This document shows positions 30,456 through 59,340 of a stretch of 64,000 nucleotides of DNA, one piece after another. The stretch is from a virus: positions 1 through 64,000 of the IMG/VR virus record IMGVR_UViG_3300042691_027063; one strand, written 5' to 3'. The notes under the pieces were generated by a model, which was not told the origin of the DNA, did no database searches, and saw only the letters and a list, made by a program, of their open reading frames with translations. Each line of letters begins with the position of its first letter. Positions within the stretch are counted from its first letter, which is position 1. The translations under genes were made by a program, and so were the position numbers.

Positions 30456-30539
30456 AAAAAGCGAGCCGCTACCTCACAACTTCTACAGCTAACCCCCTAC
30501 GTCGTCATGCAACTTCAAGGTCTATAAGGTATGTGACAC
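30456..30539 (-). ncRNA. Unassigned repeated RNA motif, copy A
   Basis: GUGUCACAUACC-46 nt hairpin insert-AGUUGUGAGGU-AGCG GCU CGCU-UUUU. Confidence 0.65.
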
Positions 30540-30798
30540 ACTTTGTAAGTTTAAGGTTATTCGCTGCGGTTACAAACTAACAAACTCCCGCCCCGCTATC
30601 CTACCTTGAGTCGGCGTAGGACACCCAACAGCAATAGCATATAGCTACCACCAAGTAAGAAGTCTCTCCTTCCTGTCACCAACTTGAGCTGATCAGTCTC
30701 TAAGGCTATTGGTCGCCCCATCCCTACTCGATCTTCACTTGCTAAACGTAAAGCCGAAGCCATACTAACTACACAAGGAGTGGACCCTCGGGCTAGTC
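30540..30798 (-). ncRNA. Putative structured non-coding RNA, contiguous with motif copy A
   Basis: About 260 nt with no ORF of 60 aa or more, GC-richer than its flanks, with multiple hairpins (GGC UUCG GCU; UGGUAGC/GCUAUUG; UCCUAC/GUAGGA; UUUGUAA/UUACAAA). Confidence 0.5.
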
Positions 30799-30999
30799 TT
30801 ATTTTGATTTCTTCTCTTTACTCCAGCTAAGGTTATCCTTAGCTTTTCCACATTCCCAACAAAACTCACCTTTCTTTTGCGGAGGCAACATGCCAAGCTT
30901 TTCAAAAACTTCAAGCATTCTCTCAACTTGCTCCACGTTAACGCAAACTGTGTTTAAGTCGTGGTTTAAAGCTTTTTTAATCATAGTGCTACGTTTCAT
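30799..30999 (-). CDS. MKRS...GMLPP...W family small protein, copy 2
   Basis: MKRSTM...FEKLGMLPP...SWSKE. Confidence 0.6.
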   Translation of the reverse strand: MKRSTMIKKALNHDLNTVCVNVEQVERMLEVFEKLGMLPPQKKGEFCWECGKAKDNLSWSKEKKSK

Positions 31000-31182
31000 A
31001 CTACTCTTCCAATTCTGGTAAATCTTTTGCTAATTCTTGCATATAACCAAACTCAATAAATCCTACCACAAATGTTCCGTTAATTATAAAAGCTGCTACA
31101 TTTTCTGCAGGTACTTTTGATTTAATTTCTCTTCTACCGATATGTCTACCAGTTTCAGCATCTTTTATTATAATATATTCTT

Positions 31183-31470
31183 TCATACTAATCCTTTTGT
31201 TCTAAGATATTTAAAATGCTCATTTCTAAATGCCTCCTGTTCTTCCGAAGAAAGAAATCCTACACAATAAATTAAAGTAGGATACAGATATGGGGGTATT
31301 TCTTGAGGAGGTCTTTTACATTGAACAATCTCATACTCAGGAGTAAATCCCCCTCTATAATAATATTCCCCCTTAGCCACAACCATAGCGATATTATGAG
31401 TAGCATACGATCCTAAATCGTACCAATCCTTATCGATGATTCTTTTTTTGAAAAGAACCTTATGACTCAT
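31183..31470 (-). CDS. Hypothetical protein
   Basis: ORF track; AGGAG RBS. Confidence 0.5.
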   Translation of the reverse strand: MSHKVLFKKRIIDKDWYDLGSYATHNIAMVVAKGEYYYRGGFTPEYEIVQCKRPPQEIPPYLYPTLIYCVGFLSSEEQEAFRNEHFKYLRTKGLV

Positions 31471-31624
31471 TCTTCTTCACTCCTTGCCATAGCTCCAGAT
31501 ACAAACCAACACACAGCAAGGAGAGGAATTGTATACCAACCAAAACATAAGGTGAGTGCTGCAATTGCTCCAATAAATAATGGAAGTGTCATAATAAACT
31601 CTTCGCTCATAACCCTCCTAATTA

Positions 31625-31805
31625 TCCAGAACAATGCCAGTTACTGGTCCAATTATAACTATTCCAATAACCGCTGCGGGAGAAAATATACAGGCAACTC
31701 CCCAAGAAATCCACATTACACTTACCGCCGTGTATTTATTCATAACCATCCTATGTGTACAAGTTCACTAGCCGCCATAACTCTCATTCGCTTACGCCTA
31801 GTCTG
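31625..31805 (-). ncRNA. Putative structured leader/small RNA downstream of a sigma70 promoter
   Basis: Hairpins ACUAG/CUAGU, UACAC/GUGUA, GGGAG/CUCCC and CGGUUAUUGG/CCAGUAACUG; G-U pairs favour the - strand. Confidence 0.4.
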
Positions 31806-31810
31806 CAAGT

Positions 31811-31840
31811 ATAATATCATGGTTTTTGCCTGCATGTCAA
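31811..31840 (-). promoter_or_regulatory. sigma70-type promoter with extended -10
   Basis: TTGACA-18 bp-TATTAT preceded by TGn. Confidence 0.55.
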
Positions 31841-31900
31841 GCTCGTAGCATCCAGTGAATAGAAGTAGCTCGTTGTTCTTTGGGCAGTAGAGTATTTCGG

Positions 31901-32119
31901 TCATTTTTTAAGAACCTTTAAAAACTCTTTAGCTTGCTGTTTAACCGTTCCCTCAACTAATTTAGGAGGATTGTTTTGTGTAAAAAATTCAAGAAACGCA
32001 ATCGTCTCATCAAGGCTAGTGTCACATTCTTGAATTAGAATGGAAACTTCTTTATGATCCATAAGTTCTGGATTAAAAAGACCTCCAGCTTGTAAATAAT
32101 TTTTTATCTTACTCTTCAT
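31901..32119 (-). CDS. Hypothetical protein
   Basis: YLQAGGLFNPELMDH motif; AGGAG RBS. Confidence 0.6.
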   Translation of the reverse strand: MKSKIKNYLQAGGLFNPELMDHKEVSILIQECDTSLDETIAFLEFFTQNNPPKLVEGTVKQQAKEFLKVLKK

Positions 32120-32264
32120 TTCTCACTCCTATTAAAAAGGATTTAAAGGCTGGTCTATGCTCGCTCTCAACCATTTACCCAAGCCTCTGTTAGCCGCTTG
32201 GCACCTACCGTTTATCTAGAATTAGCTCGCAACCAAAAGGCTGCAAGCCAAACGGCTCCTAGAA

Positions 32265-34448
32265 TCATCCTACATTATACTGAGACATATTGTCAAGCGA
32301 ATTTTTAAGAATAGCGTATTTTTTCTTTAGGCTATAGTTAGTGAAAAGATCATCAACTGGTAGGATTGTTTCAAAGGTTTGACTGGTCATATACAGTTTT
32401 TTAAGCAGAGTTGCTTTATCGTGGTCATTATTGTAATTTTCGACTAGGGAAAGCGATCCATCTTCTTTGTAATATAGATAGATTTTATCTCCCTCAACAT
32501 AGTTAGAACCAGCTAGAGCATCTCTGACTTTAGCTTCGTTAGTTCTTTCGTTCTTAAGAATCTTGTCTGTAATTGTCTTCTTATGTGACCATCGAATAAT
32601 GTCCTTGACATTCATAATTTCAAGAATATACTCATTGTAAAGATCGATGCATTTATCATGGATTACAGAGGTTTCTTTGTTATTCAAGATAATGTCAATT
32701 ACACGCTGAATGAACTCCTTAAGAGCTGGTTCTTTTTGGGTAGCTTTAATTGCAGACCCCTTATACTTAAGTTTTTTACCATCCCAAAGGATATAGTTTT
32801 TAGCTTTAACTACGATAAAAGTAGGATAAAATCCATCATCTTCCCAAGAAATTTTGTCAGGAGTTAAGGCATTAATTCCATCAATAATGAAGTTCTTTTC
32901 ATCTTCTGACATATCTTCTTGATCCGCCCGACATACAGAAACAGAGTCAGTATCACAGTTAACTAATGTATAATTATTTTCTGCAGACCACTCAATCGCT
33001 CCAGTTAAAATTTCACGACCTTTCGCAGTAATAAATGCTGCTTTAGATGGAGAGTTAAATAGAAGTCCGGCAGTTCCTAGAAATCCATAGCAAGAGTTAA
33101 TGAAGATTTTTTCAGCTGCTTGCATATCGTCGTAATATTTGTCTGTCTTTGCTAGCTTTTTGTGCTCCAAACGACGGGCAGTAAAAGTCGAAACGAGGGT
33201 TTTAAAGTATTCTCTTGGGTCTTTATCTTTGTCAAAGACTTCATACTGAATCATGATAGAAGGGTAAAGAGATGCAACGTCGAGCTTGAAAACGTTACGG
33301 TAGATTCCCGGATTTCCAATAGAGATAGCACCCTCGTATTCTTCAGCTTCGCTTGCTTTTGGTAGGCTGTGTCTATCCTGTAAATAAGCTCGCATCATGA
33401 TGGTATTGATCTGACCACCAGTGGCAGATTCAAACATCATCTGGAAGGGTTTAGCAACGCTCTGAGTCATATAAAAGAATGGTGCGATCATTAGGTCATA
33501 AAGAGCCAGCGCATCGTCGGCATCGTCTTTACAATATTCTTTAATTACTTCCCAATGATCTGCTTTTTCGTAATTGAAGCGGATTTGACTTGCATCATAG
33601 AAAACTCGTCCTGGCTTTTCTAGTCCCTCTTGTGCGATGATTTTCTTAAGTCCGTATGATTCATACTTACGACCAACATCATATCGGTAAGAAAGAAACA
33701 TTGTGTCAATGATTTCTCTTCCCCAAATATGACATTTATGGTAATGAAGGTCTTTTGTCCCGTCTACTCTAAATTTTGACTCGTATTCTTCAATTTCAAT
33801 TGGGTTGTCGTTTCTCCCCAATGTAAGATTCCTTCCATACAATGTAGCGCAGTGGTTAAGGTAAGGTATGTCAAACCCAAAGATATTGTGACCGATAATA
33901 ATAGAAGGATCGACTTCTTGAACCCACTTACACCATGCTTCAATCATATCTCCATTGTTTTCATATTCGTCGTATGCGAATAGCTTTTTCTGAACCCCAT
34001 CTACTGAACGAAATGTGTTTGAAATTAAAAGAACTTTTGACTCACTGTCATGAGAAAGCCCGACAGTTTCAATATCAAAAGAAAGAACAGAAACTTCATT
34101 GGCTTTTAATCCTTTGAAGTATGTATAGCCATCTTTTACCATCAATGCTTCTTTTGCATTTTTGATTGAAAAGATATCTCTTGCGTAGTTTTTCTTTCTG
34201 TAATCTAGGAATTCATCTCGATTAGTGAATTGCTTGCCCCACTTGTAATAAAGATCGCCATCTAATCTATTAAAAGATTTGTCGAGATTATACGGTGCAA
34301 GAACCCAAAACTTATTTGGGACAATCTTTACATCTTTTAATCCATCTGGGAATTCACGAAATAGATAAGCTTTTTCATTTTCAACCTCAATTGATACAAT
34401 GTATTCAACATCTGATTTTCCATAAATCAATCGAGCCTCTTTATTCAT
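32265..34448 (-). CDS. polB: Family B DNA polymerase with proofreading exonuclease
   Basis: Exo I FDIET, Exo II HNIFGFD, Exo III YCKDD; polymerase motifs DVASLYPS, KIFINSCYG and DTDS. Confidence 0.95.
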   Translation of the reverse strand: MNKEARLIYGKSDVEYIVSIEVENEKAYLFREFPDGLKDVKIVPNKFWVLAPYNLDKSFNRLDGDLYYKWGKQFTNRDEFLDYRKKNYARDIFSIKNAKEALMVKDGYTYFKGLKANEVSVLSFDIETVGLSHDSESKVLLISNTFRSVDGVQKKLFAYDEYENNGDMIEAWCKWVQEVDPSIIIGHNIFGFDIPYLNHCATLYGRNLTLGRNDNPIEIEEYESKFRVDGTKDLHYHKCHIWGREIIDTMFLSYRYDVGRKYESYGLKKIIAQEGLEKPGRVFYDASQIRFNYEKADHWEVIKEYCKDDADDALALYDLMIAPFFYMTQSVAKPFQMMFESATGGQINTIMMRAYLQDRHSLPKASEAEEYEGAISIGNPGIYRNVFKLDVASLYPSIMIQYEVFDKDKDPREYFKTLVSTFTARRLEHKKLAKTDKYYDDMQAAEKIFINSCYGFLGTAGLLFNSPSKAAFITAKGREILTGAIEWSAENNYTLVNCDTDSVSVCRADQEDMSEDEKNFIIDGINALTPDKISWEDDGFYPTFIVVKAKNYILWDGKKLKYKGSAIKATQKEPALKEFIQRVIDIILNNKETSVIHDKCIDLYNEYILEIMNVKDIIRWSHKKTITDKILKNERTNEAKVRDALAGSNYVEGDKIYLYYKEDGSLSLVENYNNDHDKATLLKKLYMTSQTFETILPVDDLFTNYSLKKKYAILKNSLDNMSQYNVG

Positions 34449-35029
34449 ACTATCTCCAAAATTAAATTATTACTTTTTTTTAAATTTTCATTTTCTGTAA
34501 TAATTCTAAGGTTCCAGGGAACATGCAATCCACATACATTTTTTCCTTGTAGTGGTATTATATGATCAACATTATGTCTTGTTCCGGTGGATATTGTCAA
34601 GTGTTTACTTTCTTTATATAAAAGTTCAATTTCTTTAAGTTGTTCTAATGAAAGCCATTTAGGAGTTGCGTTTAATTTTATTCCTCTTCTCTTATTGACT
34701 TTTGCTGTCAATTTCCACGGATATTTTTTAGCATAATTTTTGTTATTATTTTTAACCTTTTCTGGATATTTTTTAGCCCATTTTTCAAAAACATACTTAG
34801 ATTTTTCTGGATTTCTTTTTCTCCATTTCCTAGAATATTCAGCATACTTTTCTTTATTTTTAATCTTGTATTCTTTTTGTTTGTTTTTTATTTTATCCTT
34901 ATTTTCATCCCTGTACTTTTTTTTGCATTTTTTACAATCACAAGCATAACCGGATTTTTGGTTTTTATCTTTATGAAAAAAAGTAATGTCTAATAATAAC
35001 TTACACTTACTACAATATTTTTGGTTCAT
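34445..35029 (-). CDS. Free-standing HNH homing endonuclease
   Basis: CSKC...CKKC Zn finger, Lys-rich repeats, ATPKW...HNVDHIIPLQGKNVCGLHVPWNL...EN..KSN. Confidence 0.9.
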   Translation of the reverse strand: MNQKYCSKCKLLLDITFFHKDKNQKSGYACDCKKCKKKYRDENKDKIKNKQKEYKIKNKEKYAEYSRKWRKRNPEKSKYVFEKWAKKYPEKVKNNNKNYAKKYPWKLTAKVNKRRGIKLNATPKWLSLEQLKEIELLYKESKHLTISTGTRHNVDHIIPLQGKNVCGLHVPWNLRIITENENLKKSNNLILEIV

Positions 35030-35286
35030 AAATTAGCTTATCATACTTCATTAATGTTTCCCCTCAATTTCAGCTTGTAGAGCTTGCATTGCTAGACCAA
35101 ACCAATTGTCATCACCATCATTGATAGTAATTTCAAAGTCGCCATTGATCTGAAACTTTTCCTGCATTTCTTGTGGTGTGTAGAATTCGCCTTTATACTC
35201 AATAAGGCGATTCATGTCTTTAAATTTAATAACTTTCATAATATCCTTTTATTGGACTGGATTAAACGTTCAGCGTCCAATAAGAA

Positions 35287-35315
35287 ATAGTAGCATGTAT
35301 TTTGGAGTTTGTCAA
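35287..35315 (-). promoter_or_regulatory. sigma70-type promoter with extended -10, upstream of the HNH-polB cluster
   Basis: TTGACA-17 bp-TACTAT with TGn. Confidence 0.65.
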
Positions 35316-35363
35316 GATTAAATAATATATCAAAAGTGATATTCTACTTTTGTATAGAGTATA

Positions 35364-35510
35364 TTATTTATCTTTATATTTAGGTTTTTTGCTGCCGTGC
35401 TTTTTATATTTCTTATTACATCCCTTATGTGGAGGACATATTGCGCAATGAATTCCGCTTTTTAGCTTATGTTTGATTTTTAGGACTCGGCTATTTGTTT
35501 CTTCTTTCAT
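35364..35510 (-). CDS. 48-aa basic Cys/His microprotein (not in ORF track)
   Basis: Translated by hand: MKEETNSRVLKIKHKLKSGIHCAICPPHKGCNKKYKKHGSKKPKYKDK; starts directly after RNA motif copy B. Confidence 0.45.
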   Translation of the reverse strand: MKEETNSRVLKIKHKLKSGIHCAICPPHKGCNKKYKKHGSKKPKYKDK

Positions 35511-35511
35511 A

Positions 35512-35552
35512 GAAAATGACTAGCAGCCACCTCACAACTGGGTATGTGACAC
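35512..35552 (-). ncRNA. Unassigned repeated RNA motif, copy B (minimal form)
   Basis: GUGUCACAUACC-C-AGUUGUGA-GGUGGCU GCU AGUCAUU-UU. Confidence 0.65.
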
Positions 35553-35990
35553 CTCGGGGGGATTAGAAAACGCGGAGACTGACTCCGTAGCGAGAAGCTA
35601 CATTCTTAACTGTTTTGACAGGACGATGAATAATTGCAGCAATACTTTTTGCTGTTAGCGTTCCAGCATTAAATAGAATAAAATTTACAGTTCCTGGTGT
35701 TAGTTTTTTACCAAGTTTGGTTGCTTTACCATTTACATTAGAAAAACGACGCATAGATACTCCTTTGTTTGGTTTACTAATCATATATTACTTCTTCTTA
35801 GTTGTCAACTTCTTTTTTGGTTTTTTGAATTCAAGCAAGTTCTTAGCTGGATTTTCAGATGCAAGAACCCAATCTTCAGCCATTACATCAGCTTGGCTAT
35901 ATCCAATTCCTCCCACCATGGGTACAATATATACGAAATTGTCATGTTTTCGCTTATGTGGCTTTCCTGTTTTAATCGCCTCTATTAATG

Positions 35991-36206
35991 TCATTCGTCC
36001 TCCCAATAGTGATCTTCGCCTGTAAGTATGTTCATGGGTGCTTTTGGTGGCAACATACCAAATTCTTCTATAAACTCTAAAATTTGCGAAGCGTCGCTAT
36101 ATTGTGCTGTTTCAAATTCAGAAATAGCAGTAGCTCCATTATCTTTACCTAAATCTAAGTGTATTAATTTTGATAGAATTAATTCAACAGCTTCACTTCT
36201 CTTCAT
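35991..36206 (-). CDS. MKRS...GMLPP...W family small protein, copy 3
   Basis: MKRSEAV...IEEFGMLPP...YWEDE. Confidence 0.6.
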   Translation of the reverse strand: MKRSEAVELILSKLIHLDLGKDNGATAISEFETAQYSDASQILEFIEEFGMLPPKAPMNILTGEDHYWEDE

Positions 36207-36390
36207 CTTCAGGCTCCCATTTATGTGCATATCTAACGTGCTCTAAATCAAAAATGAAATTTGGATCATGCTCTGGAGGAAGCATTCCTATATTTTCTAA
36301 TGTTCTTAAAACATCTTCACAAGTTTCGTAAGAAACTCCAATCGGTCCTAATCTTTTAAATATAAACTCCACAGCTAAACTACGTTTCAT
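36193..36390 (-). CDS. MKRS...GMLPP...W family small protein, copy 4
   Basis: MKRSLAV...LENIGMLPP...KWEPE. Confidence 0.6.
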   Translation of the reverse strand: MKRSLAVEFIFKRLGPIGVSYETCEDVLRTLENIGMLPPEHDPNFIFDLEHVRYAHKWEPEDEEK

Positions 36391-36591
36391 TTTTTCTCTT
36401 TAATTTTCTTTTTCTGTGTTTTTGTGATTTTCTTTTTTTCTTATTTTTAAATAACTTAGAAACCTCTTCGCAGTCATCTAAAAATTGAGTCCCACTATTA
36501 ATCTTTCCACTTTTTCTATCTTTTTCAAATTCATCCAAAATCCTCTTACTGTGTAAAGCTAAAATTTTGTGCATATCTTCAATATCGGACA

Positions 36592-38523
36592 TTATTCCCA
36601 CCCGTCCTTCGATCCTTCTTTTGTTGCATCTTTTAATTTCATAAGCTGTTTAAGCTCATCTTTCTCATGATCTTCCAAAGTGAAGATTTCGCCAGTCTTA
36701 CCATGCCATCCCATTTCGAAGCGATCTAGTTCACCCAAGTCATTTTTAAGAATATTAATTACCATGTATTTATCAAGCTCTTTCGTAGCTGGTGTGTAAA
36801 ATGGACGACTGAGACTAATAATTCCTCGGAATGATTGATACAAGAAAGAACTTCCTTTAATAGAAGTATATGATTTGATCTCTGTATCTGGTCCCCCACC
36901 TAGAGCAAACTTGTTCGGCTGACATAGAGTGATTGCTGCAACGTCTAGGTCATTAACCATATCCTGAATTTGGCTTGCAACTTTCTTACTTGCTGCAGTA
37001 TCTTCTGATACATCACACTGAATACGCTCGAAATAGTCGAACATAACCATCTTTACTTTCTGACCAGTCTTAGCTTCTACCGAAAGAACGTAGTTTTTAA
37101 TATCTTCAACTGTGGCAGAGCTACGATCATAGAACCAAACATTACCATAATGCTTTCTAACAAGGTCAGTGATCTTCTTTCCTCGTCCTTCTTTAAATTC
37201 CTTATATACATCTTCTCTTGAAAGACCTGTGACGTTATATACAACCTTCTCAAAAAGACGATTACGGTGCATATCCAAGCTTGCAAACACTGTTGGAATA
37301 CCTTGCTCTGAGTTATAACGTAAGATTTTAAGAGCCAATGCCGTTTTACCTGCACCGGCAGCAGCAACCACCCCAATATTACTACCTACAGTAATTGGAA
37401 TTGTCTTGTCTAGCTCAGGAATACCTGTTTTAATTGTATTCTTTTCAATATGCTTCAAGTAGTGGGTGAAGCCAGCTTCAATTCCATCTAAAGTTGCTGG
37501 ACCTTCTTCTTCGTGAGTAGTAATACCCATCTTTTTAGCGTACTGAGCTAGCCAGTTATTTGGATCGCGAGTTGTAAATTGACCGCCCTTCCAGTTAGGA
37601 CCATATACTTGATTGATAATTAGATCAATTTCGCGCTCAGGAAATACATCTTCTCCAGTTCTTTGTGATTGAAGCTCTGCTGCGCCAGAAAGCATACCCT
37701 TTGTCACTTCGTATGGGTAATTTAGATTGTGTAGGGTTGATGCTAGGCATAGCATCGAGTGATTTCTCTCCCCACTACGGAAAAATCCATTCATCAAAAG
37801 CCAGCGAACTTCATCAATTCCTTTAGGACGAGCCTTCATATCGATTGTTGAAATATCGAATGTTAGTTCCTGCGCAATTGTCTCAATTGTCTTTTCTGCC
37901 ATTGGCTTTAGGTCTTTCAAATCATTTGGAAGCTGGGCAATCTTAATCATTCGTTCAACTTTCCTTGGTGTTTTAGCCATTAGCTTAATATCATCTAGTG
38001 TTGTGTTAGCAAGTTCCTCTGGAGTCAAAGGAATTTTGTAAAGCCCCGACTTTTGGTGTTTTGTGTTTGCAATTCTTACAATACGGTTAGGGTCATTCAC
38101 CACAGTATCGAATGTTTTTAGGTCTCCCGCAATCTCAAACACAATTGACTTGAACTTGTCTGGTGTGATATTCTCATCTAGCTCAAGTTCCAAGCTAAAT
38201 CCCTTATTGCCAGTGAAATAGCAGGAAATTTGATCCTCCTCAAAGCCTCTTGTAAGGAGTCGGTTGGCTGTTTCCAGAGCATCTTGACGAGCTAGCTCAA
38301 TATCATCCTTGCTGTCAAAATCAAAGTAAAGTGTGTTTGTTAGAGTGTCGCGGATACCGCTGACAGTTCCAGTTTCTTCAATTTGTTTCTTTTGATTCTC
38401 ATTGTACTTATACAAACTACGATACCAGTCTGAGCTTTTTGTAATTAGCTTAGAAAGGTCTGAGTTTTCTGGTACAAGTTTTGGTTTTGATCCGAGTCCG
38501 TTGCGAATGTTTAAATACATCAT
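36592..38523 (-). CDS. Primase-helicase fusion (AEP primase + PriCT + SF4/DnaB-like helicase)
   Basis: AEP motifs YFDFD, FTGNKGF and FD...RIVRIANT; PriCT GERN; helicase IKTG..ELD, AGAGKT, FDY, SIKGS, KN..GE; GAGGGG RBS before 38523. Confidence 0.88.
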   Translation of the reverse strand: MMYLNIRNGLGSKPKLVPENSDLSKLITKSSDWYRSLYKYNENQKKQIEETGTVSGIRDTLTNTLYFDFDSKDDIELARQDALETANRLLTRGFEEDQISCYFTGNKGFSLELELDENITPDKFKSIVFEIAGDLKTFDTVVNDPNRIVRIANTKHQKSGLYKIPLTPEELANTTLDDIKLMAKTPRKVERMIKIAQLPNDLKDLKPMAEKTIETIAQELTFDISTIDMKARPKGIDEVRWLLMNGFFRSGERNHSMLCLASTLHNLNYPYEVTKGMLSGAAELQSQRTGEDVFPEREIDLIINQVYGPNWKGGQFTTRDPNNWLAQYAKKMGITTHEEEGPATLDGIEAGFTHYLKHIEKNTIKTGIPELDKTIPITVGSNIGVVAAAGAGKTALALKILRYNSEQGIPTVFASLDMHRNRLFEKVVYNVTGLSREDVYKEFKEGRGKKITDLVRKHYGNVWFYDRSSATVEDIKNYVLSVEAKTGQKVKMVMFDYFERIQCDVSEDTAASKKVASQIQDMVNDLDVAAITLCQPNKFALGGGPDTEIKSYTSIKGSSFLYQSFRGIISLSRPFYTPATKELDKYMVINILKNDLGELDRFEMGWHGKTGEIFTLEDHEKDELKQLMKLKDATKEGSKDGWE

Positions 38524-38556
38524 ATCCCCTCTTATGAAAGCTAAGGTCACTTTGGA

Positions 38557-38585
38557 ATATTATAATATAATCTTATTTTTGTCAA
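38557..38585 (-). promoter_or_regulatory. sigma70-type promoter upstream of the primase-helicase
   Basis: TTGACA-17 bp-TAATAT. Confidence 0.6.
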
Positions 38586-39187: not shown

Positions 39188-39193
39188 GCTGAC

Positions 39194-39222
39194 ATAATAG
39201 CGTATAAATTGGATGTTGTCAA
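39194..39222 (-). promoter_or_regulatory. sigma70-type promoter
   Basis: TTGACA-17 bp-TATTAT, just upstream of the exonuclease ATG (near-leaderless). Confidence 0.55.
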
Positions 39223-39228
39223 GAAAAT

Positions 39229-39251: not shown

Positions 39252-39256
39252 CTTCT

Positions 39257-39986: not shown

Positions 39987-39988
39987 TT

Positions 39989-46806: not shown

Positions 46807-46823
46807 TTCTTTCCTTTTTAGCA

Positions 46824-50379: not shown

Positions 50380-51394
50380 TTAGTTCTCCTCTATATTTGA
50401 TTCACATTGAAATTGAACAGAATCCATTTGGTAATCCTCGAACAAATGTGGTCCCATAACTACACTTTCTTTTTGTCTTGAAATAGACCAGTCTTTATGA
50501 ATATTTGTTAAAGAGTTATAGGAAATAAAACAATAATCATATTTAGATGTTAGCTGTTGAAATTTAATCATTTTGTAACCGCCCTGAAATTAACAAACTC
50601 AGAACCTGAATCTGTTTTTTCAATTATATGTCTACCTTCCCAGGAGTATCCCTTTTCTGATGTTTTATTTTCCTCTGAAATGTAAATAGCAAAGTTGTAG
50701 TGATATTCCGATTTATCGAGTGGCAACATATATTGTGTAATTTCAATCATACTGGATGTCCCATAATATCATCTTCCTCTGTTTCATTATACTCATCTCG
50801 ATTGACGTTGTAAAGTAAATTCTCATACATCTTATGAATTACTTTATTACCATCAATATTCAATACTCTAGAGTTATTTGAATGTGGTTCTAGAATTTCT
50901 AAAGGTCTTAAATCATTGAAGTCTTTTACCTTACACTCAGGAAATAGTTCATTGAATGTTCCAACTGTCTGGACTTCTAAGTTGTCGAACTTATTAATTC
51001 TTTCACCAATTGTATAAAATTTAGATTTCATATTTAAATGCTCCTTTGTCTAAAAGCCACTCTTGATTTTCAAACTTTTCTTTTTCTATTACTGAAAATT
51101 TAAGGTCTATACCTTGCTTTAATAAATTACTTAACCAACTATATCGATTTTGAAATAAGATCATTTATCAACCTCTTCCTTTTTAGCCTGACATTTGCGA
51201 CAGGTTATATATTTATTATTACTGAAATAAGAATCTTCGTACCATTCGTGCTTACATTTAGGAGTTTCTTCTAGTTCAAAATATCCCCAATCATCTGGGT
51301 TGATATAGTAAGGATCGTATTCTCTGTCCCACTTAGTACCAGAAAAAAGCTTTTCAATTTCTTCATCTGTTAGCGTAATTGGTTTATGCATATA

Positions 51395-51958
51395 CTACCT
51401 CAATTCATATACATATCGTAATTTTCTTTCTTGTTTTAAAACAGATGCTTCGCCTTTTTTAATTGCATCTTGAATTCTCTTAGCGTCTTTAGAGTACTCA
51501 CCATCTTTCTTTTGATATAGCTGTCTAATATGGTAGTATCTATCTCCCCACTTTACAACCCTAGCATTATTCTTTTCTAAGCCATCGAACTTGAAGTTAG
51601 TTGCTTTATATATTGTTCCTTGGTGACCTTTATTTGGATCAGCAAATGTTATAACTCTAGTATATCTCTTTTTCTTTAAGTGTCTAAGAGTAGCACCTAG
51701 AAAGAAACTCTCTGTGTTCTTCGGGGTATCGTCAATTAAACAGAATCTACGAAGCTCTAAATCGTTCATGTCACAGTTTGCCCCACAAGGCTGACCATAG
51801 ATAGCTACCCCACAAAGTTCTCCAAATTCGCTCAACAAAAGAAAAACTTCCTTTTGTTTCATTGATCTACAACTCTTAGAGTAATGCCACTTTTCTACAA
51901 AGTCAATAGTATTCTTTGAAAGGATCGATCCTACTGGCACGATTTTATATCTCATCAA
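51395..51958 (-). CDS. Mom-family (GNAT-fold) DNA adenine modification enzyme
   Basis: HYSK, GVAIYG.P, ELRRFC, NTESFFLG, ITFADP..GHQGTIYKATNF, KLRYVY. Confidence 0.8.
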   Translation of the reverse strand: MMRYKIVPVGSILSKNTIDFVEKWHYSKSCRSMKQKEVFLLLSEFGELCGVAIYGQPCGANCDMNDLELRRFCLIDDTPKNTESFFLGATLRHLKKKRYTRVITFADPNKGHQGTIYKATNFKFDGLEKNNARVVKWGDRYYHIRQLYQKKDGEYSKDAKRIQDAIKKGEASVLKQERKLRYVYELR

Positions 51959-53747
51959 TCTCCCCAGATTTTTGTATAGCTATCTTTAAATTGATTACTA
52001 AAATCTATTGATGCATATCCAGTTGTTCCATTATATCTAGGAAATGATGTTATTTCTCCATTCCATGTAATAAAGAAAAGGTCTTGACCACACATATCAT
52101 TAGTGTTTTTATATTGAGAAATTCTAAGCATTGAAGTCTCCAATTTCAACATGATCTAAAAACTTCGAAGACACTGTACTGTGACTTCTAGGAACTCCGT
52201 TTTGTAAGTAGTGGAGGATTCCATCTTTTACAAAGTCAAAACAAAGCTGATCTCTTTGGTTAGGCGTTTTAATATATTGAAGTATTTTAATCATTGAAGA
52301 CTCCTATTAGATTATATCCAATTAGCTCATCATATTTATAGTGCATCGAATAGATAATACCTCTATTTTGATAATAAAGAGTATCACCTATAAGCTTATC
52401 AAGCATAAGCTCAAACTGTCCAAAATTGACTTGGATGATCTTCATTGTAAGTTCCTGTAATTAATATGATTTTAAATTTTTATTGAAGCGATGTTCATTT
52501 TTTACTTGACAGCATTTTCTTGACGTGATATATAACAACTATGCACAGTATATAATTGAAAGATGGTTGATTTAAGGACAGGTATATTCAAATTTTACTC
52601 TTGACTTTGTGAAATATTCTTTATAGTCTGGTCTAGTTATATTTCCTTCCTCAAAACCATGTATAGTATTTCTACTATACTTAAACCAAATATCCTTTCT
52701 CCTTACTATAGTAAAGGAAAGTGAGTTATATCCTACATCGCTACCATACTGAAAAATGTATATCATTATTTACTCCATATTAAATTATAGAATTTACTTT
52801 CTACTATAAAACCAATGGATACATAACATCCGCCTAAGTCCTCTGTTTTTTTATTAGGATATTTATAAAAACTTCTATCTAATTCCTTATTGTATGAAAT
52901 AAAACAGAGGTGAAACTCCGAACTTTTACGAACGCACTGATCGAATCTCATCATAAACTTTAACTCCTAATTCCTTGAGTCTAGCTCTACAATTAATCTT
53001 AGCTTGCTTTATACTGGAAGCTTGACCTATAATAATTACTGACAAATTGTGATCTATAATTCTGTAAGTGAAATCGTTTTGATTTATTAGAGCTTGTAGG
53101 ATTGTATTTTTAGAGACAATGAATTGCTGAGATGCAAGTATGTTTGGGGCTTTATCTAAGGGCTTATATTGAATCCTCGTCATTGTCAAAACCTCCTTCA
53201 TAGAGTTCAACAAATCTATCTTCACCAACACAGAACAAAACCTTATCTCTGTTAACAGTTGCGAGATATGCTTGACTTTGTTTTTCAGGTGAATTAACTA
53301 GAACTTGCTCAAAAGCAAAGGCTAAACATTCTTCAGCAGATAAAGATTTATAAGAGCTATTTAGCTGAATTTCCTCAACTTGATCCTCAATCGCTCTTAA
53401 TAGTTCCTTTACTTTTTTATTTCTCATTTTACCTTGTGGTCATAAATAACCAAATCCAGAATATTGGAAATGAAAGATAAAAAATAATACCATAGAAAGC
53501 CAAACTTGTCAAGGCATTAGCTACTCTAAATCCAATAATCTTACAAAAGAAGAGCAAGATAATTGCTCCAGCAATAACGTATCTCATTTGATCCTTGTAT
53601 AAAATATATTATATTCTTTATCATAGCTATAGGAAGCTAGTATTTGTCCTGTTTTTAATGTACTAACTTTTTCTTGTAAACAAGCAAACTGCAAGCACCA
53701 TACTGTCTTCTCTTTAGCCATAGCTTTATATTGTTTTATAATAAACA

Positions 53748-54068
53748 TTAATGCAATCCTTCTTTCTTAGCTGGTTTACTTGGCATATCCAACTCAATTC
53801 CAAGTTCACTAGAAAGCTCGTCAAATATATCTTCCGTAAGTTCGATAAGCTTAATAGGTTCATTCTGCTCACTAATTATATTAGCAAACTCACTTTCAAA
53901 AACAGAAAAAGCTTTCTTCATCAAGTCCATAGTTTTATTGTATGGGTCTTTTTCAAATTCAAGCTCGTCCTCTTTTTCCATAAGCTCGGCGGCTGCATCT
54001 GAAAATAATCCAAATGCTTGAGTCATCATTGTGAGAAGAAGTAACTGTGCTTTTTCTTTATCATTCAT
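53748..54068 (-). CDS. Acidic hypothetical protein
   Basis: ORF track. Confidence 0.5.
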   Translation of the reverse strand: MNDKEKAQLLLLTMMTQAFGLFSDAAAELMEKEDELEFEKDPYNKTMDLMKKAFSVFESEFANIISEQNEPIKLIELTEDIFDELSSELGIELDMPSKPAKKEGLH

Positions 54069-54396
54069 TGTTTAATCCTAGTGAAGAAGTATGTTTCTTT
54101 TTTTCTAAGTCTGCGATGACTTGACCGACCGCTAGTACTCCAGCTATAAAGATATTCGTTAAAGTTTTTTCCTTTGTAAAATGTTAAATCTCTGAAATTA
54201 AAATCGAAGCTTTTTCTTTGTGCAATTAACATATCAATCCTTTATGTATTTAAATTCTCTACAAACTGGTGGTTTCATTATCCAACTATTAATATACCAC
54301 CAGTTATAAATACTTCTATCATTTTCTACCGATGTTCCGCAATTCCCAATTAGTAATAAAAACTTAAATCTAATTCTTTCATTTACTCCAATTTCT

Positions 54397-55152
54397 TTAT
54401 GGTCGAACTGGTAAATTCTCATTGATGTACTCCTTCATTGCAACTACCCAACGCTGGGCATTATTAGAGTTCAATCCTGGTGCTGAGTTTACTTCACAAA
54501 CAAAGAAGTTACCATCCTTATCTCGAATCAAATCTACTCCACCAAATAATAAACCAAGAGCATTTACTGCATCAATTGCAATTTTTTGACCGACTTCATT
54601 ACATCGACTTCTTGTAGGATTGACGAGACTAAAGTGGCAGTTATGTGACTTGAATAAAGCGGGTCGTTCGTAGTTTTCTTCATTGATATTATTAGGAATC
54701 TTTTCGTAAATGGCTACGATCTTGGAATTGAAGACATGAACTCGATACTCTCTCCTCTTATTTGGAATTGGCTTAGAGGCATACTGATCTGTTACTGGAT
54801 TGAAGTCATTACCATAACGAACTTCACCTTGTCTCGATCTGATATAGTAGTTATTAGTTGTATCTTTTACTGAATCAATGCTAGTTAATTCTGTAGTAAA
54901 TACAGGCATTGGAATATTTGCAGCAGAAAGTAATTGCATCATTCTTAGTTTATTGCTAGCGTTTAATACCGCCTCTGCTGTATTAAGTTCTAGTCTAGCT
55001 GTAGTCCTATTGAATACCTCAGAGCTACCCCAACGAATAAGAACATCTAATTTAGCACGACGCTGTGTTTTCTTTCTAGGACAGGAAAGAATCTGACGAA
55101 GAAGCTTTCCAGTGTTGGATGATTTAGAATGGTAGGCAATCATTGTTTTCAT
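54397..55152 (-). CDS. ATP-grasp ligase (RimK/YheCD-like)
   Basis: IRWG, ASNKL, REYRVHV, ALGLLFGGVDL, CEVNSAPG. Confidence 0.9.
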   Translation of the reverse strand: MKTMIAYHSKSSNTGKLLRQILSCPRKKTQRRAKLDVLIRWGSSEVFNRTTARLELNTAEAVLNASNKLRMMQLLSAANIPMPVFTTELTSIDSVKDTTNNYYIRSRQGEVRYGNDFNPVTDQYASKPIPNKRREYRVHVFNSKIVAIYEKIPNNINEENYERPALFKSHNCHFSLVNPTRSRCNEVGQKIAIDAVNALGLLFGGVDLIRDKDGNFFVCEVNSAPGLNSNNAQRWVVAMKEYINENLPVRP

Positions 55153-55501
55153 TTTTAACCTTCGCTTCTAACTTAGCTGTGAAACTATATCGATGTTTCT
55201 CTATCGATTCATTATAGAAATCTTTTTTATTAATCTGTTTGATTAAACAAATATGATTAAGAATTCTACCAAAAGACAATTCGTACACAATGAGACGAGA
55301 ATGGTCTCTCATTTTATACTGAACGATTTCCATATTAGTTCACCTTATAAAGTTCAATAAGTTGATCGTCAAAAACCCAACCACTAATACTGTCACATCC
55401 AAGACTCCCCCACCTATCATCGTATTTATTTTTAATCCAAAATAATAATTGTCTTGGTCTACTATAGAAAGAGTTATTTTTTAATTGACATATCTTCATA
55501 T

Positions 55502-56710
55502 TTATCCTTTAGCTTCTCCATAAGCAGAATTAAATACAAATTCAATCTCATCTACAACATCTTGGAAATCATCGAACTGCCAAGTATCTTGACGAAGATG
55601 AGTTGGAAGACATTCATACATATAAGAAAAATTACATCCGAACTCAGCGTCATACTCATATAGTCGATCGATCAATGGTTCGTCAACGTCATAAAGGAAA
55701 TCGAAAAGATCGGCGATGTTATAGAACTGTTCTCTTTCTGAGACCTGCGATAATACCTGAGTCTCTTCTCTCTCTGATTCTTTCTTCGAGGGTTTTGAAG
55801 GATTCATTGGTAGAAGGTAAGCTTGACTTTTTTTTTCTGGCTGACTTGCTTTTCCAGACATACGCTCCCAATCGAATCCGCCGTAGTAATTGCCTCGGCT
55901 ATTGAGAACCGAATCATTTAGCTGCGTTTGAGAAATAAGCTGACCAGTTACAGCATTGAATCGGAATAACTTATTTTCTTTAATCATTGATGGTTTTGTA
56001 AATTCAAGTCCGAGCTTTGTTGCTGTTGATGTGATGATGTCGGTAGTCGTTGCCATTACTATTCCGAATCCTTCGATTTGTGAATAATATAACCCCGCAT
56101 CATTACGAATAACGTCAAGAATGCGAGTGCCGTCAGAGTCCCGAGTAAGAATACCAAACGCCCAATAACCAGAAAGAGTGTTAAGCCAAGCTTGCGCATT
56201 GGAAATATCCTTACCTACGTTATGATTGATATATGATTGCAACGCTGCCTCTGAATCGCAAGTAGAAATTTTATTAAGTCCAAGTGTAAAAGAGTTACTG
56301 ATAACTCCGTTATGTACTAGAGAATGATCTGCGTCAACGAATGGGTGTGTATTGGCGAACTCTTTTCCACAGGTAGCATAACGTGTGTGCATTGTTACTG
56401 TCGTAACATTTTCAAATGTCGGAACATCTACACCAAACAAAGAATAGTTTTGATCGATGTTAGTATATTTAGACAAATGCTTTTTATATGCAAGAAGTTC
56501 TTTAGCAATCTTCTCATCTCTAATTGCGTCTCGATCAAAGAACAAATCGTTATCATGCCATCGCTCAGTAAAGAAGTTACCATCATTCTTTACTGCACTA
56601 TAACCAATTCCCATGTTGTTACCAACAGACATTGGAACCTTAGCTTCTAGCATAAATTTTTCAGTTAGCGATGGATTCTTAAGACCTGTCATAAGTAATA
56701 ATCGACACAT
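55502..56710 (-). CDS. Class II (Ntn) glutamine amidotransferase
   Basis: N-terminal M-C nucleophile, HTRYAT, NTHPF, HNGVI, CDSE, G.WAF. Confidence 0.9.
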   Translation of the reverse strand: MCRLLLMTGLKNPSLTEKFMLEAKVPMSVGNNMGIGYSAVKNDGNFFTERWHDNDLFFDRDAIRDEKIAKELLAYKKHLSKYTNIDQNYSLFGVDVPTFENVTTVTMHTRYATCGKEFANTHPFVDADHSLVHNGVISNSFTLGLNKISTCDSEAALQSYINHNVGKDISNAQAWLNTLSGYWAFGILTRDSDGTRILDVIRNDAGLYYSQIEGFGIVMATTTDIITSTATKLGLEFTKPSMIKENKLFRFNAVTGQLISQTQLNDSVLNSRGNYYGGFDWERMSGKASQPEKKSQAYLLPMNPSKPSKKESEREETQVLSQVSEREQFYNIADLFDFLYDVDEPLIDRLYEYDAEFGCNFSYMYECLPTHLRQDTWQFDDFQDVVDEIEFVFNSAYGEAKG

Positions 56711-56956
56711 CAATAATTTCCTTTGTTTAATTTGATAATAGATATAATTCCATTTCTTAGAGTTATCTTTTGTTTTAAACCATTTGGTTGAAGCATATCA
56801 TAATCTTTTGATATGACCATACCATTTAAGTATAAAGTAGAAGATGTAATTTCACTACAAGCGTCAGAATATAGCGGGTCTGGTAGACTGAGAGTCAATA
56901 GCAGAGTGTTCTGGAATATCTCTACTCCAGAACCTCTGTAATAAAAGAACTTGATT

Positions 56957-58363
56957 TTAGGCTGCTTCGAACTCTTCGTTGCCGTTCTCATCGATTCGAG
57001 ATGAAACGTAGTCCATAGCAACTTTAGGGATAGATGGAGCCACCGAAGAAAGTTCCGTAATTGTCTCCATTTTCTTTGTAATAAGTTGAGCATTGTTCAC
57101 TACTCCGATAAGAAACTTACACCAGTTAATAATCTGAACACAGTTTACTGTACCCTCGTGAACTCGAATCTCAAGAGTTTGGAACTTCTTAAATGCGTGA
57201 GTGTTAATAACGCTATATCTTTCAGAATCGTTACGCTCCTGTGTTACTTTGAAAGAAGAGTTTTTATTTGGTTTACAGTATGTATTTAGCTGTCTATACT
57301 CAGGTTGAGCTTTACGCATTAGACTCATTGTGTTAAACAATGCAGCGTATGAAGTCTCTGCGTTTCGAGTTCTGTGATCGAGATGAACGTGCAATCCACA
57401 AGATCGGTTTACAAGTGCATTGATTTCCTTGTCCCGTAGAACTTTTTGGATTCGCATTAGGACATTTTCTAGCTCATCTTCCGAGACTAAAACTCGAATT
57501 TCGCAAGAGAAATAATTCGGTGCATCTACATTGATCGAACCATCATCTGTAACATTGACATACTTATGAAGGCGAGCTTCGATGAATTTCTTCTTAAGCT
57601 TGTCACGACCACCCTTAACGATACACTCAATCTCGATACCAACATATTTTTTATTTGGATCGGAAGGAACTTTGTTTTGCTCAATAAAAGTAACAAGTCC
57701 TTGCTCAAAGATTTTACCATAAACATTGGATTCAACATTGATGCCACCCAACTTACGAACCTTAACACCTTGAACTTCTTTGACTGTCTCTTTTAGAACA
57801 TTAGCTCTACGCTGTTCTGTGATAAGAGAGGCAAGGTGCATCTCTAACTCTTCTTTTTTGTCAGCTAGAGAAGTCTCAACTTCTACAACTCGCTTGAGCT
57901 TATCAACATAAAACTTTGTAGTTGCTGGATTTAGAGCAGATGAGATGGCGAGTTCAATTTTCTCAATCTCAGCAGCGTTCGCCTTCATTGTCCGACCATT
58001 TGGCTTATACTTTAGAGCCAAACGCTCACGCTTTTGACGAAGAAGTGAAAGCTCTGTTTGCAATTGACTCACATCAATCTTATCTTCAATCTTTCGATAA
58101 GCAATGGTTCGTTTACATACAGCAGGTTGACAATCTGCAACTCTGAGAATTGGATTTCCTTGAACCTCTGGAACATTGAGAACTTCTACCTCAATGATTT
58201 CACCATGATAGCTATGCTTATCAGTTCTAAGAACTTTGAAAAGCCAATCACGCATAATACCAACATAACCTAGCTGACCGAAATGACCATCTAGTTTGAA
58301 ATTTTCAGCGAACATAGATGGATTAAGACGGATAACAGAACCAACTTTAATTTGATTTGACAT
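56957..58363 (-). CDS. COOH-NH2 ligase (putative amidoligase) with N-terminal coiled-coil extension
   Basis: GIEIE, DDGSI, CEI, CGLHVHLD, RYSVIN, TLEIRVHEGT; GGAGG RBS. Confidence 0.88.
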   Translation of the reverse strand: MSNQIKVGSVIRLNPSMFAENFKLDGHFGQLGYVGIMRDWLFKVLRTDKHSYHGEIIEVEVLNVPEVQGNPILRVADCQPAVCKRTIAYRKIEDKIDVSQLQTELSLLRQKRERLALKYKPNGRTMKANAAEIEKIELAISSALNPATTKFYVDKLKRVVEVETSLADKKEELEMHLASLITEQRRANVLKETVKEVQGVKVRKLGGINVESNVYGKIFEQGLVTFIEQNKVPSDPNKKYVGIEIECIVKGGRDKLKKKFIEARLHKYVNVTDDGSINVDAPNYFSCEIRVLVSEDELENVLMRIQKVLRDKEINALVNRSCGLHVHLDHRTRNAETSYAALFNTMSLMRKAQPEYRQLNTYCKPNKNSSFKVTQERNDSERYSVINTHAFKKFQTLEIRVHEGTVNCVQIINWCKFLIGVVNNAQLITKKMETITELSSVAPSIPKVAMDYVSSRIDENGNEEFEAA

Positions 58364-58439
58364 AGACAATACCTCCGAGTTATGTCAATTATTATTTACA
58401 TTTTCATTGGAGTCAATACCCCAAATTTTACCTTCATGT

Positions 58440-58853
58440 TCAAGTACGTTTTGCTCGAACCATTCTTTTAGTTCTTGCTCTGATTTTCTTTCGAGTTCGA
58501 GTTGAAGAAATAGATTTAATTTCCATACCTTTTTTGACTGGAACACTTTTGATTCTTCCATTTTTCCTCATCTCTACTGGGATTGTTATTTGATTAATAA
58601 ATTCAATACAATTGGTCGGTATGCTATGAATAGCATTTATGTTATATTTATTTGAGAAAAAAGAAGGAGTCAATCTACCTAGAGTCATAATCTCAATAGG
58701 AATATCTTCACCTTCCTCGTCATCCCAAATTTCATCTGTATAAGTATCGTTTCTTTTAATATAAAACTCAAGTTCTTTATTAGGAGAAACTCCACCATAT
58801 AACTCATCACAAGTAGACTCATCAAGTATCTGAGCTAGAGTTATTTTTTCCAT
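58440..58853 (-). CDS. Hypothetical protein
   Basis: ORF track; GGAG RBS. Confidence 0.5.
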   Translation of the reverse strand: MEKITLAQILDESTCDELYGGVSPNKELEFYIKRNDTYTDEIWDDEEGEDIPIEIMTLGRLTPSFFSNKYNINAIHSIPTNCIEFINQITIPVEMRKNGRIKSVPVKKGMEIKSISSTRTRKKIRARTKRMVRAKRT

Positions 58854-59254
58854 TTAAATCTCCAGTATAAAAAGTGAATCTATTTGGCTCATCTTCTGTT
58901 GCATTTTTTAGTTTACGTTCTTGTTTAATTGGTGTTTTTCTTCCTTCATCTTTCCAAGTATAATAGTCACTTAGTACACATCTAAATTTAAGATGTGCTC
59001 CTTTTACCCAACTTTTATCATCCTTGTATTGAGCTATCTTCATTTTTTAACCCTTTAAGATTATACCTAAAGTCAGATTTTTCCGTATAAATGTACATAC
59101 CAGACGAGACTAACATCGTCTTTTTGCTTTCACAATTATACCAAGTTCCTTTTTTGTGATCTTTATTTATAACAATCACATTAAATCCTAAATGCGATTG
59201 CCAAATATATTTTCCGTCGATCGGAGTTTGATCGAAGTAAATCATAATCCTCCT

Positions 59255-59340
59255 AAATAGTGACGAGCCGTCACCTCACAACTACTTTCCTGTCATCCAA
59301 CAACAGAGGTCAGTAACCTTACGAGTTAGGTATGTGACAC
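59255..59340 (-). ncRNA. Unassigned repeated RNA motif, copy C
   Basis: GUGUCACAUACC-45 nt two-hairpin insert-AGUUGUGA-GGUGACG GCU CGUCACU-AUUU, then AGGAGG RBS. Confidence 0.65.

Follow-up and report, generated by a model that had tools for sequence, protein, structure and literature searches.

What is the short sequence that recurs at three gene boundaries of one phage genome, and does it act as RNA or as DNA? The stretch analyzed here (the window) comprises 64,000 nucleotides, bases 1 to 64000 of the 95,647-bp IMG/VR virus record IMGVR_UViG_3300042691_027063, which is rated complete. Two sequences, box 1 (GTGTCACATACC) and box 2 (AGTTGTGAGGT), have three exact matches each in the window, every one on the minus strand; the chance expectation for an exact 12-mer is ~0.008. 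Together they form three box 1/box 2 pairs (30539-30528 / 30481-30471, 35552-35541 / 35539-35529, and 59340-59329 / 59283-59273), referred to here as copies 1, 2, and 3 of the element, and the paired pattern occurs three times in the full record, with no extra copy outside the window. A covariance-model scan of the window with filters off returned the three copies at 75.9, 65.0, and 53.2 bits, with the next-best hit at 8.6 bits, and box 2 matches with two or fewer mismatches were about as frequent as chance predicts (18 found, 16.8 expected). A start codon lies 1 to 18 nt past the end of each copy (ATG at 30438, 35510, and 59245). A preliminary description of this DNA, made from the sequence alone, had reported three minus-strand copies with identical boxes just before genes, which the exact matches and the covariance scan both confirm; it set copy 2 at 35512-35552, where the site is right and the extent is corrected to ~35553-35511.

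Boxes, hairpins, and a predicted pseudoknot

The copies resolve into the following parts, where hairpin 1 contains box 1, hairpin 2 follows box 2, and the insert is the sequence between the boxes.

30456-30543, minus strand: copy 1, whole, with hairpin 1, a 46-nt insert, box 2, hairpin 2, and a U5 run (75.9 bits)
30528-30539, minus strand: copy 1 box 1 (GUGUCACAUACC), with the loop GUCACAU at 30537-30531
30471-30481, minus strand: copy 1 box 2 (AGUUGUGAGGU), with UGUGA, the partner of the hairpin 1 loop, at 30478-30474
30460-30470, minus strand: copy 1 hairpin 2, AGCG-GCU-CGCU (-2.0 kcal/mol alone)
35511-35553, minus strand: copy 2, the minimal form (53.2 bits), followed by the ATG at 35510
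35541-35553, minus strand: copy 2 hairpin 1, with GGU at 35553-35551, the loop GUCACAU at 35550-35544, and ACC at 35543-35541
35540 and below, minus strand: rest of copy 2, with a C at 35540, box 2 at 35539-35529, hairpin 2 (GGUGGCU-GCU-AGUCAUU) at 35531-35515, and a U-rich tail
59255-59342, minus strand: copy 3, whole, with a 45-nt insert between hairpin 1 and box 2 (65.0 bits)
59328-59342, minus strand: copy 3 hairpin 1, with AGGU at 59342-59339, the loop at 59338-59332, and ACCU at 59331-59328
59283 and below, minus strand: rest of copy 3, with box 2 at 59283-59273, hairpin 2 (GGUGACG-GCU-CGUCACU) at 59275-59259, and AUUU; a Shine-Dalgarno sequence (AGGAGG) and the ATG at 59245 follow

Box 1 and the base preceding it form a hairpin of their own (GGU, loop GUCACAU, ACC). 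Since box 1 is itself a hairpin, its pairing with box 2 would create a pseudoknot and not a plain stem. The preliminary description overlooked this hairpin and hence also the pseudoknot topology and the analogy to the coremin and xrRNA-WCC motifs considered below. To compare instances, we tabulated 33 distinct ones, taken from two small bacterial metagenome-assembled genomes (MAGs) and from more than 25 further contigs of IMG/VR and metagenomes. The GGU/ACC core of hairpin 1 is paired in 31 to 33 of these and a fourth pair, which may be A-U, U-A, C-G, or G-U, in 19. Exceptions in the core are compensating, with U-A changed to C-G in one locus (L055) and G-C to A-U in two (L029 and L073). Overall, 115 of the 132 cells of this stem (stem 1) are paired, compared with a shuffle mean of 106, and five of 5,000 shuffles reach 115. 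The loop reads GUCACAU in 32 instances and GUCACCU in the remaining one (L055).

Pairing between the loop and box 2 (UCACA/UGUGA, 5 bp, here stem 2) can form in all 33 instances and is invariant in sequence in 32, so that covariation in stem 2 is normally invisible. Locus L055 provides the variant: its loop carries UCACC and its box 2 GGUGA, a double change (A to C and U to G) that keeps the fifth pair. The calculated duplex energy is -7.4 kcal/mol for the L055 pair and -5.3 kcal/mol for the common pair, compared with -3.7 and -4.3 kcal/mol for the mixed combinations. Given the change in the L055 loop, pairing would be regained with ~1 of every 33 possible single changes to box 2. The UCACA/UGUGA pairing proposed in the preliminary description thus gains support from one natural compensatory double change, and comparison of the instances indicates that the loop of box 1 and box 2 form an H-type pseudoknot.

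In this predicted fold, loop 1 is an invariant G, loop 2 is a single U, and loop 3 has at least 4 nt and houses the swappable insert of 1 to 66 nt. Loop 3 of H-type pseudoknots tolerates extra domains. Insert lengths of 1, 11, 24, 33 to 37, 45, 46, and up to 66 nt were seen. One class of insert consists of a hairpin (NNUNCG / CGNANN) with a UCU-rich loop and a CUUACUGGUAAA tail; a second comprises AUCUUGA, an inner hairpin with a CUAGA loop, and UAGGGAU, and occurs in the copy at 30539 as well as, among relatives, behind a small helix-turn-helix (HTH) gene described below. The lengths of 46, 1, and 45 nt given earlier for copies 1, 2, and 3 are therefore correct, but the inserts are not unrelated to each other as had been thought, since homologous classes recur across sites and phages. 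A coding function is ruled out by the insert lengths, which are not multiples of three; furthermore, one frame of box 2 contains UGA. A hammerhead-like appearance of the copy 3 insert was also discarded, as Rfam gave no match to it at an E value of ≤5.

Hairpin 2, with a stem of at least 3 bp, begins 1 to 5 nt after UGUGA in all 33 instances. Its loop is mostly GCU, otherwise GCUA, GCA, or one of a few other GC-containing loops, and its closing pair may be G-C, A-U, U-A, or C-G, with variation in the deeper pairs as well. Each hairpin 2 was picked by its pairing, which makes the paired fraction circular, but not the variety of stems around a fixed loop in a fixed place. For the window copies, the terminal hairpins (AGCG/CGCU, GGUGGCU/AGUCAUU, and GGUGACG/CGUCACU, each with a GCU loop) are exactly as first described. 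The strand is fixed by G-U pairs in both hairpins, since the opposite strand would have A-C mismatches in their place. These pairs, the covarying stems, and the orientation of every copy along the genes uphold the earlier view of the element as RNA, and we consider it, on this comparative evidence, a strand-specific structured RNA motif with a conserved core of ~20 nt and a minimal form of ~40 nt.

The element is absent from Rfam 15, in line with the initial failure to assign it to a known family. Searches of the whole window at the gathering score, and of the three window loci at an E value of ≤5, found no match; the relatives gave tRNA matches only, and the bacterial locus gave none over the element, with matches at E values of 3.4 and 9.2 located 65 to 110 nt upstream on the opposite strand. 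A literature search with the box sequences retrieved only unrelated primers.

Occurrence in related phages and two bacterial genomes

Exact-pattern scans of IMG/VR also detected both boxes, separated by 11 to 66 nt, in further viral contigs. A covariance model built from 12 copies, the kind of search of phage metagenomes suggested in the preliminary description, was then applied to 10 related records, divergent ones included, and every one of them had between one and three good copies. As a search handle independent of the motif sequence, we used the 63-aa HTH gene that precedes copy 2. This gene and its promoter are located as follows:

35563-35751, minus strand: 63-aa HTH gene, directly upstream of copy 2
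35780-35808, minus strand: sigma-70-like promoter TTGACA-17-TATGAT, ~28 nt before the HTH gene

Homologues of this gene in viral and metagenome collections define ~25 loci, in almost all of which the element lies 8 to 31 nt past the stop codon; the two most distant homologues (47% identity) lack it. The pairing of HTH gene and element is kept in more than 20 related contigs, where the gene behind the element differs by locus (a 50-aa two-helix membrane protein, a dUTPase-like protein, a zinc-ribbon peptide, and others). About half of the relatives have a comparable promoter 20 to 33 nt ahead of the HTH gene, and a promoter in this position gives the unit the order promoter, HTH gene, element, next gene. 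Across instances, the element either follows an upstream stop codon by 2 to 33 nt or forms the end of a non-coding RNA; it is always in the orientation of the genes, and the next start codon is usually 17 to 45 nt past it. In five loci (L075, L078, L080, L085, and L088), no start codon occurs within 80 to 230 nt of the element. Approximately half of the HTH loci have C-rich tracts (CCUCC or CCCCCC) after the HTH stop codon (for example, at window positions 35562-35554 and in L036, L040, and L042 to L044). These tracts could pair with the GAGG of box 2 or with the next Shine-Dalgarno sequence and may constitute a translational-coupling device.

Copy 1 has a different setting, at the 3' end of a conserved non-coding stretch of ~300 nt, with the next ATG at 30438. 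The part leading into the copy (30540-30800, minus strand) contains no convincing open reading frame (ORF) and no Rfam match. It is kept in three other phage contigs (L017, L029, and L084) with 80 to 97% identity in blocks and a variable middle, and some versions begin after a TATAAT box. This stretch looks like a larger phage non-coding RNA of which the element is the 3' domain. The variable middle of one version holds an 84-nt tRNA-Val with anticodon AAC (L029:1343-1426, plus strand; detected by ARAGORN and by the Rfam tRNA model at 43.8 bits).

Outside phages, we scanned one genome for each prokaryotic species, and two small MAG genomes (0.9 to 1.1 Mb), one of them labelled Patescibacteria, proved to carry the boxes, once each. 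These copies (L075 and L078) have a different second hairpin, AGGG ... CCCU, with a loop containing GCA. In both, the element stands at the end of a long non-coding region (L078:497-965 and L075:~1750-2150, both plus strand), and the two regions share a second block, GCCUUUCUAUUGA. The L078 region is a promoter-to-terminator unit of ~470 nt, with a U6 terminator, that the element closes and behind which a ruvA promoter lies. The two regions may represent an unfamiliar bacterial non-coding RNA or a mobile-element remnant. They show no homology to the long phage RNAs beyond the boxes, and GOLLD, ROOL, RNase P, tmRNA, and SRP were rejected for the bacterial loci, as for the stretch before copy 1, because Rfam gave no match. 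A housekeeping RNA of Patescibacteria was rejected as well, since the boxes occur in 1 of 401 genomes of that phylum searched, the one that is the source of the locus. A further box match, in Lysinibacillus (L076), falls in an apparent coding sequence, lacks the hairpin, and was treated as due to chance.

Possible functions of the element

The reading that we favor, at a probability of only about 0.35, is that the element is an RNA roadblock or boundary element that would shield or insulate the downstream message. A compact H-type pseudoknot, carrying an optional hairpin domain of up to ~60 nt in loop 3 and followed 1 to 5 nt downstream by a hairpin, would act mechanically as a roadblock, or mark a boundary, on long early and middle transcripts. 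It would stop an agent moving 5' to 3' along the RNA, for which an exoribonuclease such as RNase J, a 5'-end-scanning RNase E, the ribosome, and Rho are candidates. The cistron behind it would then keep a defined, protected 5' end or be insulated from the unit in front. We rank this possibility first because of the coremin-like build of the element, its position at gene boundaries, and the weakness of its hairpins. From the observed motif, with its conservation, hairpins, compensatory change, and boundary placement, we infer both the roadblock function and the sort of enzyme that might be blocked.

Coremin (xrRNA-C) is a two-hairpin knot of beny-, cucumo-, and other RNA viruses, with which plant viruses halt RNA-degrading enzymes; the enzyme stalled is a 5'-3' exoribonuclease (Xrn1). 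The minimal coremin site for stalling comprises a pair of hairpins, 3 and 4 bp long, with a highly conserved 10-nt spacer between them; the first hairpin needs a YGAD loop, and the second is required but conserved in structure only (PMC6546385). First-hairpin loops of 5 to 8 nt function too, and the motif can block scanning ribosomes (PMC10520033). In the related Watson-Crick form, xrRNA-WCC, the loop and spacer form a canonical pseudoknot with a conserved G as a one-nucleotide first loop, and the second hairpin comes one nucleotide behind the pseudoknot, a direct succession that is unusual among pseudoknots (PMC10321173). The minimal copy of the phage element (35553-35515) has a similar build, with a 3-bp hairpin, a 7-nt loop, a conserved spacer of ~10 nt, and a second short hairpin. 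As in xrRNA-WCC, the loop and spacer pair canonically and antiparallel, and a single invariant G makes up loop 1. As in coremin, hairpin 2 follows almost directly and its stem is kept in structure only, hairpin 1 falls within the 3- to 4-bp size range, and the placement is in untranslated or intergenic regions, often in several copies.

The differences are of sequence and of detail. The coremin loop is YGAD (4 nt) or YGNNAD (6 nt) (PMC6546385, PMC10520033), whereas the first base of the element's loop is G and not Y, and the coremin spacer ends in CUAC, whereas that of the element is (A)AGUUGUGAG, 10 nt long in the minimal copy. Most copies of the element have inserts of 10 to 66 nt before the spacer, where coremin has none; stem 2 has 5 bp compared with ~3 in coremin; the hairpin 2 loop is variable in coremin but conserved as GCU in the element, which hints at a bound protein; and the carrier is a bacterial DNA phage. 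Without YGAD and CUAC, the element is not filed as a member of coremin. It appears to be a family distinct in sequence that shares only its architecture with coremin and that might stall a 5'-3' exoribonuclease in a similar manner.

The weakness of the hairpins bears on the idea, raised in the preliminary description, of a regulated terminator. The energy of hairpin 2 alone is -2.0, -3.7, and -7.5 kcal/mol in the window copies, -3.7 kcal/mol in the commonest form, and +1.2 kcal/mol in one relative (L027). A U-run (at least five U in 8 nt) follows ~11 to 13 of the first 25 instances, compared with ~2 by chance. Of the U-rich run noted earlier after the hairpin, the window copies have a U5 run, a U-rich tail, and AUUU; as a constant feature it fails, being present in about half of the 33 instances and mostly missing from copies with the hairpin GGCGA-GCUA-UCGCC. 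Enriched yet often missing, the U-run seems to be selected in many copies without belonging to the core, and to describe the element just as a terminator would not suffice. Intrinsic terminators likewise have a G+C-rich hairpin followed by a U-run, as about half of the copies do, but the stems of the element are mostly 3 to 5 bp (-2 to -7.5 kcal/mol), its loop is conserved, and a gene often begins a few bases past it with no promoter between. A plain hairpin-plus-U-run terminator is thereby weakened.

A further RNA in the same phage is relevant to the roadblock reading. A relaxed Rfam search of 61500-62800 (1.3 kb) gave a full-length match to Hammerhead_3 (RF00008) at 61898-61952 on the minus strand (36.1 bits, E value 8.5e-6), which is below the gathering score of 48.5 and missed at default settings; that search found no second hammerhead. 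This subthreshold match suggests, circumstantially, that RNA devices that set the 5' ends of messages belong to the biology of this phage.

Several points weigh against a roadblock. The sequence features of coremin are lacking, in that the loop is neither YGAD nor YGNNAD and the spacer has no CUAC, and the likeness is one of architecture only; the conserved GCU loop, the long stem 2, and the inserts are departures as well. To our knowledge, Xrn1 is absent from bacteria, and we know of no exoribonuclease-resistant knot demonstrated in a prokaryote. Covariation support for stem 2 comes from a single variant lineage (L055). The best-conserved neighbor is the upstream HTH gene and not the downstream gene, and the element closes a non-coding RNA in four phages and in the two bacterial MAGs; given this upstream linkage and this closure, a role at 3' ends fits at least as well.

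If the roadblock reading is true, prokaryotes would have, in this element, a counterpart to exoribonuclease-resistant knots, which are known from eukaryotic RNA viruses only, and DNA phages would use protein-free RNA folds to set the boundaries and lifetimes of messages. The element is small, sharply defined, and modular, and its natural variants already suggest the key mutants, so that it lends itself readily to structure probing and to assays of decay and transcription and might be used as a part in the design of synthetic operons. In addition, it is a marker for a family of uncultured phages from freshwater, ~60 to 95 kb in size, and for a conserved small HTH regulator.

Among other explanations, the next in rank, which we think unlikely, is a signal akin to nut or put sites, in which the folded nascent RNA, with or without a phage or host protein on the GCU-loop hairpin, would modify RNA polymerase for read-through of terminators farther along the early/middle operon or tune a leaky terminator within the element. 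The nut sites of lambda (boxA-boxB) and the put sites of HK022 are cis-acting RNA signals of early phage transcripts that stand directly behind a promoter or the first small HTH gene, present in two to three copies per genome; here, there are just one to three good copies per genome. Lambda PR-cro-nutR and HK022 putR have a layout that parallels the one seen here (promoter, small HTH gene, element, next genes), and in two relatives a TATAAT box lies ~25 to 30 nt before the element, as for nutL and putL. The succession of a conserved single-stranded box and a small hairpin, fixed in its loop and variable in its stem, resembles boxA-boxB, and U-runs occur in ~11 to 13 of 25 instances against ~2 expected. 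However, neither boxA (CGCUCUUA-like) nor a GNRA-like pentaloop is found in the three window copies, the pseudoknot is an addition relative to nut and put, and no N-, Q-, or NusG-like gene appeared among the larger proteins and immediate neighbors scanned. Furthermore, the U-run is missing in about half of the instances, the hairpins are too weak for efficient termination, and the copy at 30539 closes a non-coding RNA and does not stand behind a promoter-proximal gene.

Less likely again is a translational operator or coupling device, in which the pseudoknot would sit beside a Shine-Dalgarno-like GAGG and a bound protein, or a ribosome finishing upstream, would control the next initiation. Most phage copies end 1 to 45 nt before a start codon. 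In at least five, the GAGGU of box 2 is the sole Shine-Dalgarno-like sequence, with the hairpin shortening the effective distance to the AUG, and four of those have a C-rich, anti-Shine-Dalgarno-like tract (CCUCC or CCCCCC) between the stop codon and hairpin 1. However, GAGG is replaced by GAGAGU, GAGUGU, GAGUU, or GAGCC in ~10 of 33 instances, many copies have a separate and better-placed Shine-Dalgarno sequence past the hairpin, and the downstream genes are mutually unrelated, with some copies having no start codon within 80 to 230 nt. Known pseudoknot operators include that of Escherichia coli rpsO, bound by S15, and the leader of T4 gene 32; they are also small H-type pseudoknots just upstream of or overlapping the ribosome-binding region, but each regulates one cognate gene through that gene's own product, while the element precedes unrelated genes and closes non-coding RNAs.

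An improbable reading, but one that accounts for the upstream linkage, is that the element ends and stabilizes the RNA in front of it, either the HTH message or a non-coding RNA, by blocking 3'-5' exonucleases or binding a 3'-end chaperone. Linkage to the HTH gene is conserved while the downstream gene changes, the ~300-nt non-coding stretch is closed by the element in four phages, the ~470-nt unit of L078 is closed by it before the ruvA promoter, and the hairpin is enriched for U-runs behind it. However, the gene behind copy 2 begins 2 nt past the extended hairpin and lacks its own promoter, which means that transcription must pass through the element; many copies lack the U-run, and comparable knots already known act in one direction, from the 5' side.

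It is doubtful that the core forms the active site of a new self-cleaving ribozyme or the pocket of a pseudoknot riboswitch for an infection-related small molecule, cutting or gating early transcripts between genes alongside the probable hammerhead 2.5 kb upstream. The pattern of ~20 invariant core nucleotides with variable stems and an optional peripheral domain is that of aptamers and small ribozymes, a pseudoknot abutting a hairpin and U-run looks like an expression platform, and the same early transcript contains the probable hammerhead; ribozymes of new classes have turned up close to those already known. However, the downstream genes share no common function, we found no mutually exclusive pairing of aptamer and hairpin, a conserved hairpin loop is unusual for an expression platform, and no such family was matched at E values of ≤5 to 10. 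A closing helix that would join the A-rich stretch preceding box 2 to the U-rich tail, of the kind seen in pistol ribozymes or terminators, is convincing to the eye in several copies but was rejected by permutation (P = 0.29), with own pairs averaging -2.72 kcal/mol and cross pairs -2.54 kcal/mol; the pistol ribozyme thus lacks support for its closing helix P2, and it gave no Rfam match.

That the element is instead a site in double-stranded DNA (an operator for the HTH protein, a phage-specific promoter, or a recombination hotspot for shuffling cassettes) is very improbable: a gene for a LuxR/GerE/sigma-4-type HTH adjoins the best-conserved copy, TCACA...TGTGA is an inverted repeat, and different genes stand behind the element across phages as recombination there would give, but the half-sites are spaced by 8 to more than 70 bp, both stems covary and use G-U pairs, in place of which the other strand would have A-C mismatches, every copy is oriented along the genes, and there is no -10-like element at a fixed distance. 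In T4-type phages, promoter-early stem-loop (PeSL) cassettes combine a promoter with a simple stem-loop. The element is like them a short conserved regulatory sequence repeated at early gene boundaries with different genes behind, but it has no promoter consensus, and its conserved part is a pseudoknot.

The phage and the genes around the copies

The phage is uncultured, has a genome of ~96 kb, and comes from freshwater; the sequencing runs that contain its DNA are labelled freshwater or, mostly, fungus metagenome, and none is registered as RNA. Minus-strand genes form a block from ~24.4 to 63 kb, and the remaining genome, on the plus strand, is structural (portal, tail fibers, and large virion proteins). 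In addition to a ribonucleotide reductase and a PD-(D/E)XK nuclease, the minus-strand block encodes the following.

32265-34448, minus strand: family B DNA polymerase
36592-38550, minus strand: DnaB-like helicase
54397-58369, minus strand: amidoligase_2 (PF12224), glutamine amidotransferase (PF13522), and RimK-like ATP-grasp (PF08443) genes, consecutive, with very small ORFs interleaved

The polymerases of the nearest named phages are just 27 to 29% identical, and a 7-kb stretch around two of the copies had no nucleotide match by megablast against GenBank phages. Sigma-70-like promoters and AGGAGG-type ribosome-binding sites are present.

Profile searches with the HTH protein found no Pfam match and no PDB sequence match; it matches PHROG 323, “transcriptional regulator, D5-like” (E value 2e-6). 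Its homologues fall into 138 metagenome clusters, with no functional name or Pfam hit among the 120 listed. The predicted fold (pLDDT 84) is a beta-hairpin plus three helices, and fold matches are weak (E value ~0.3), mainly to LuxR/GerE/NarL-type and sigma region 4 domains. On the other side of copy 2, starting 2 nt past its extended hairpin, a 48-aa lysine-rich peptide with a zinc-ribbon-like CxxC...C pattern is encoded at 35367-35510 on the minus strand, and the sole candidate for its ribosome-binding site is the GAGGU of box 2.

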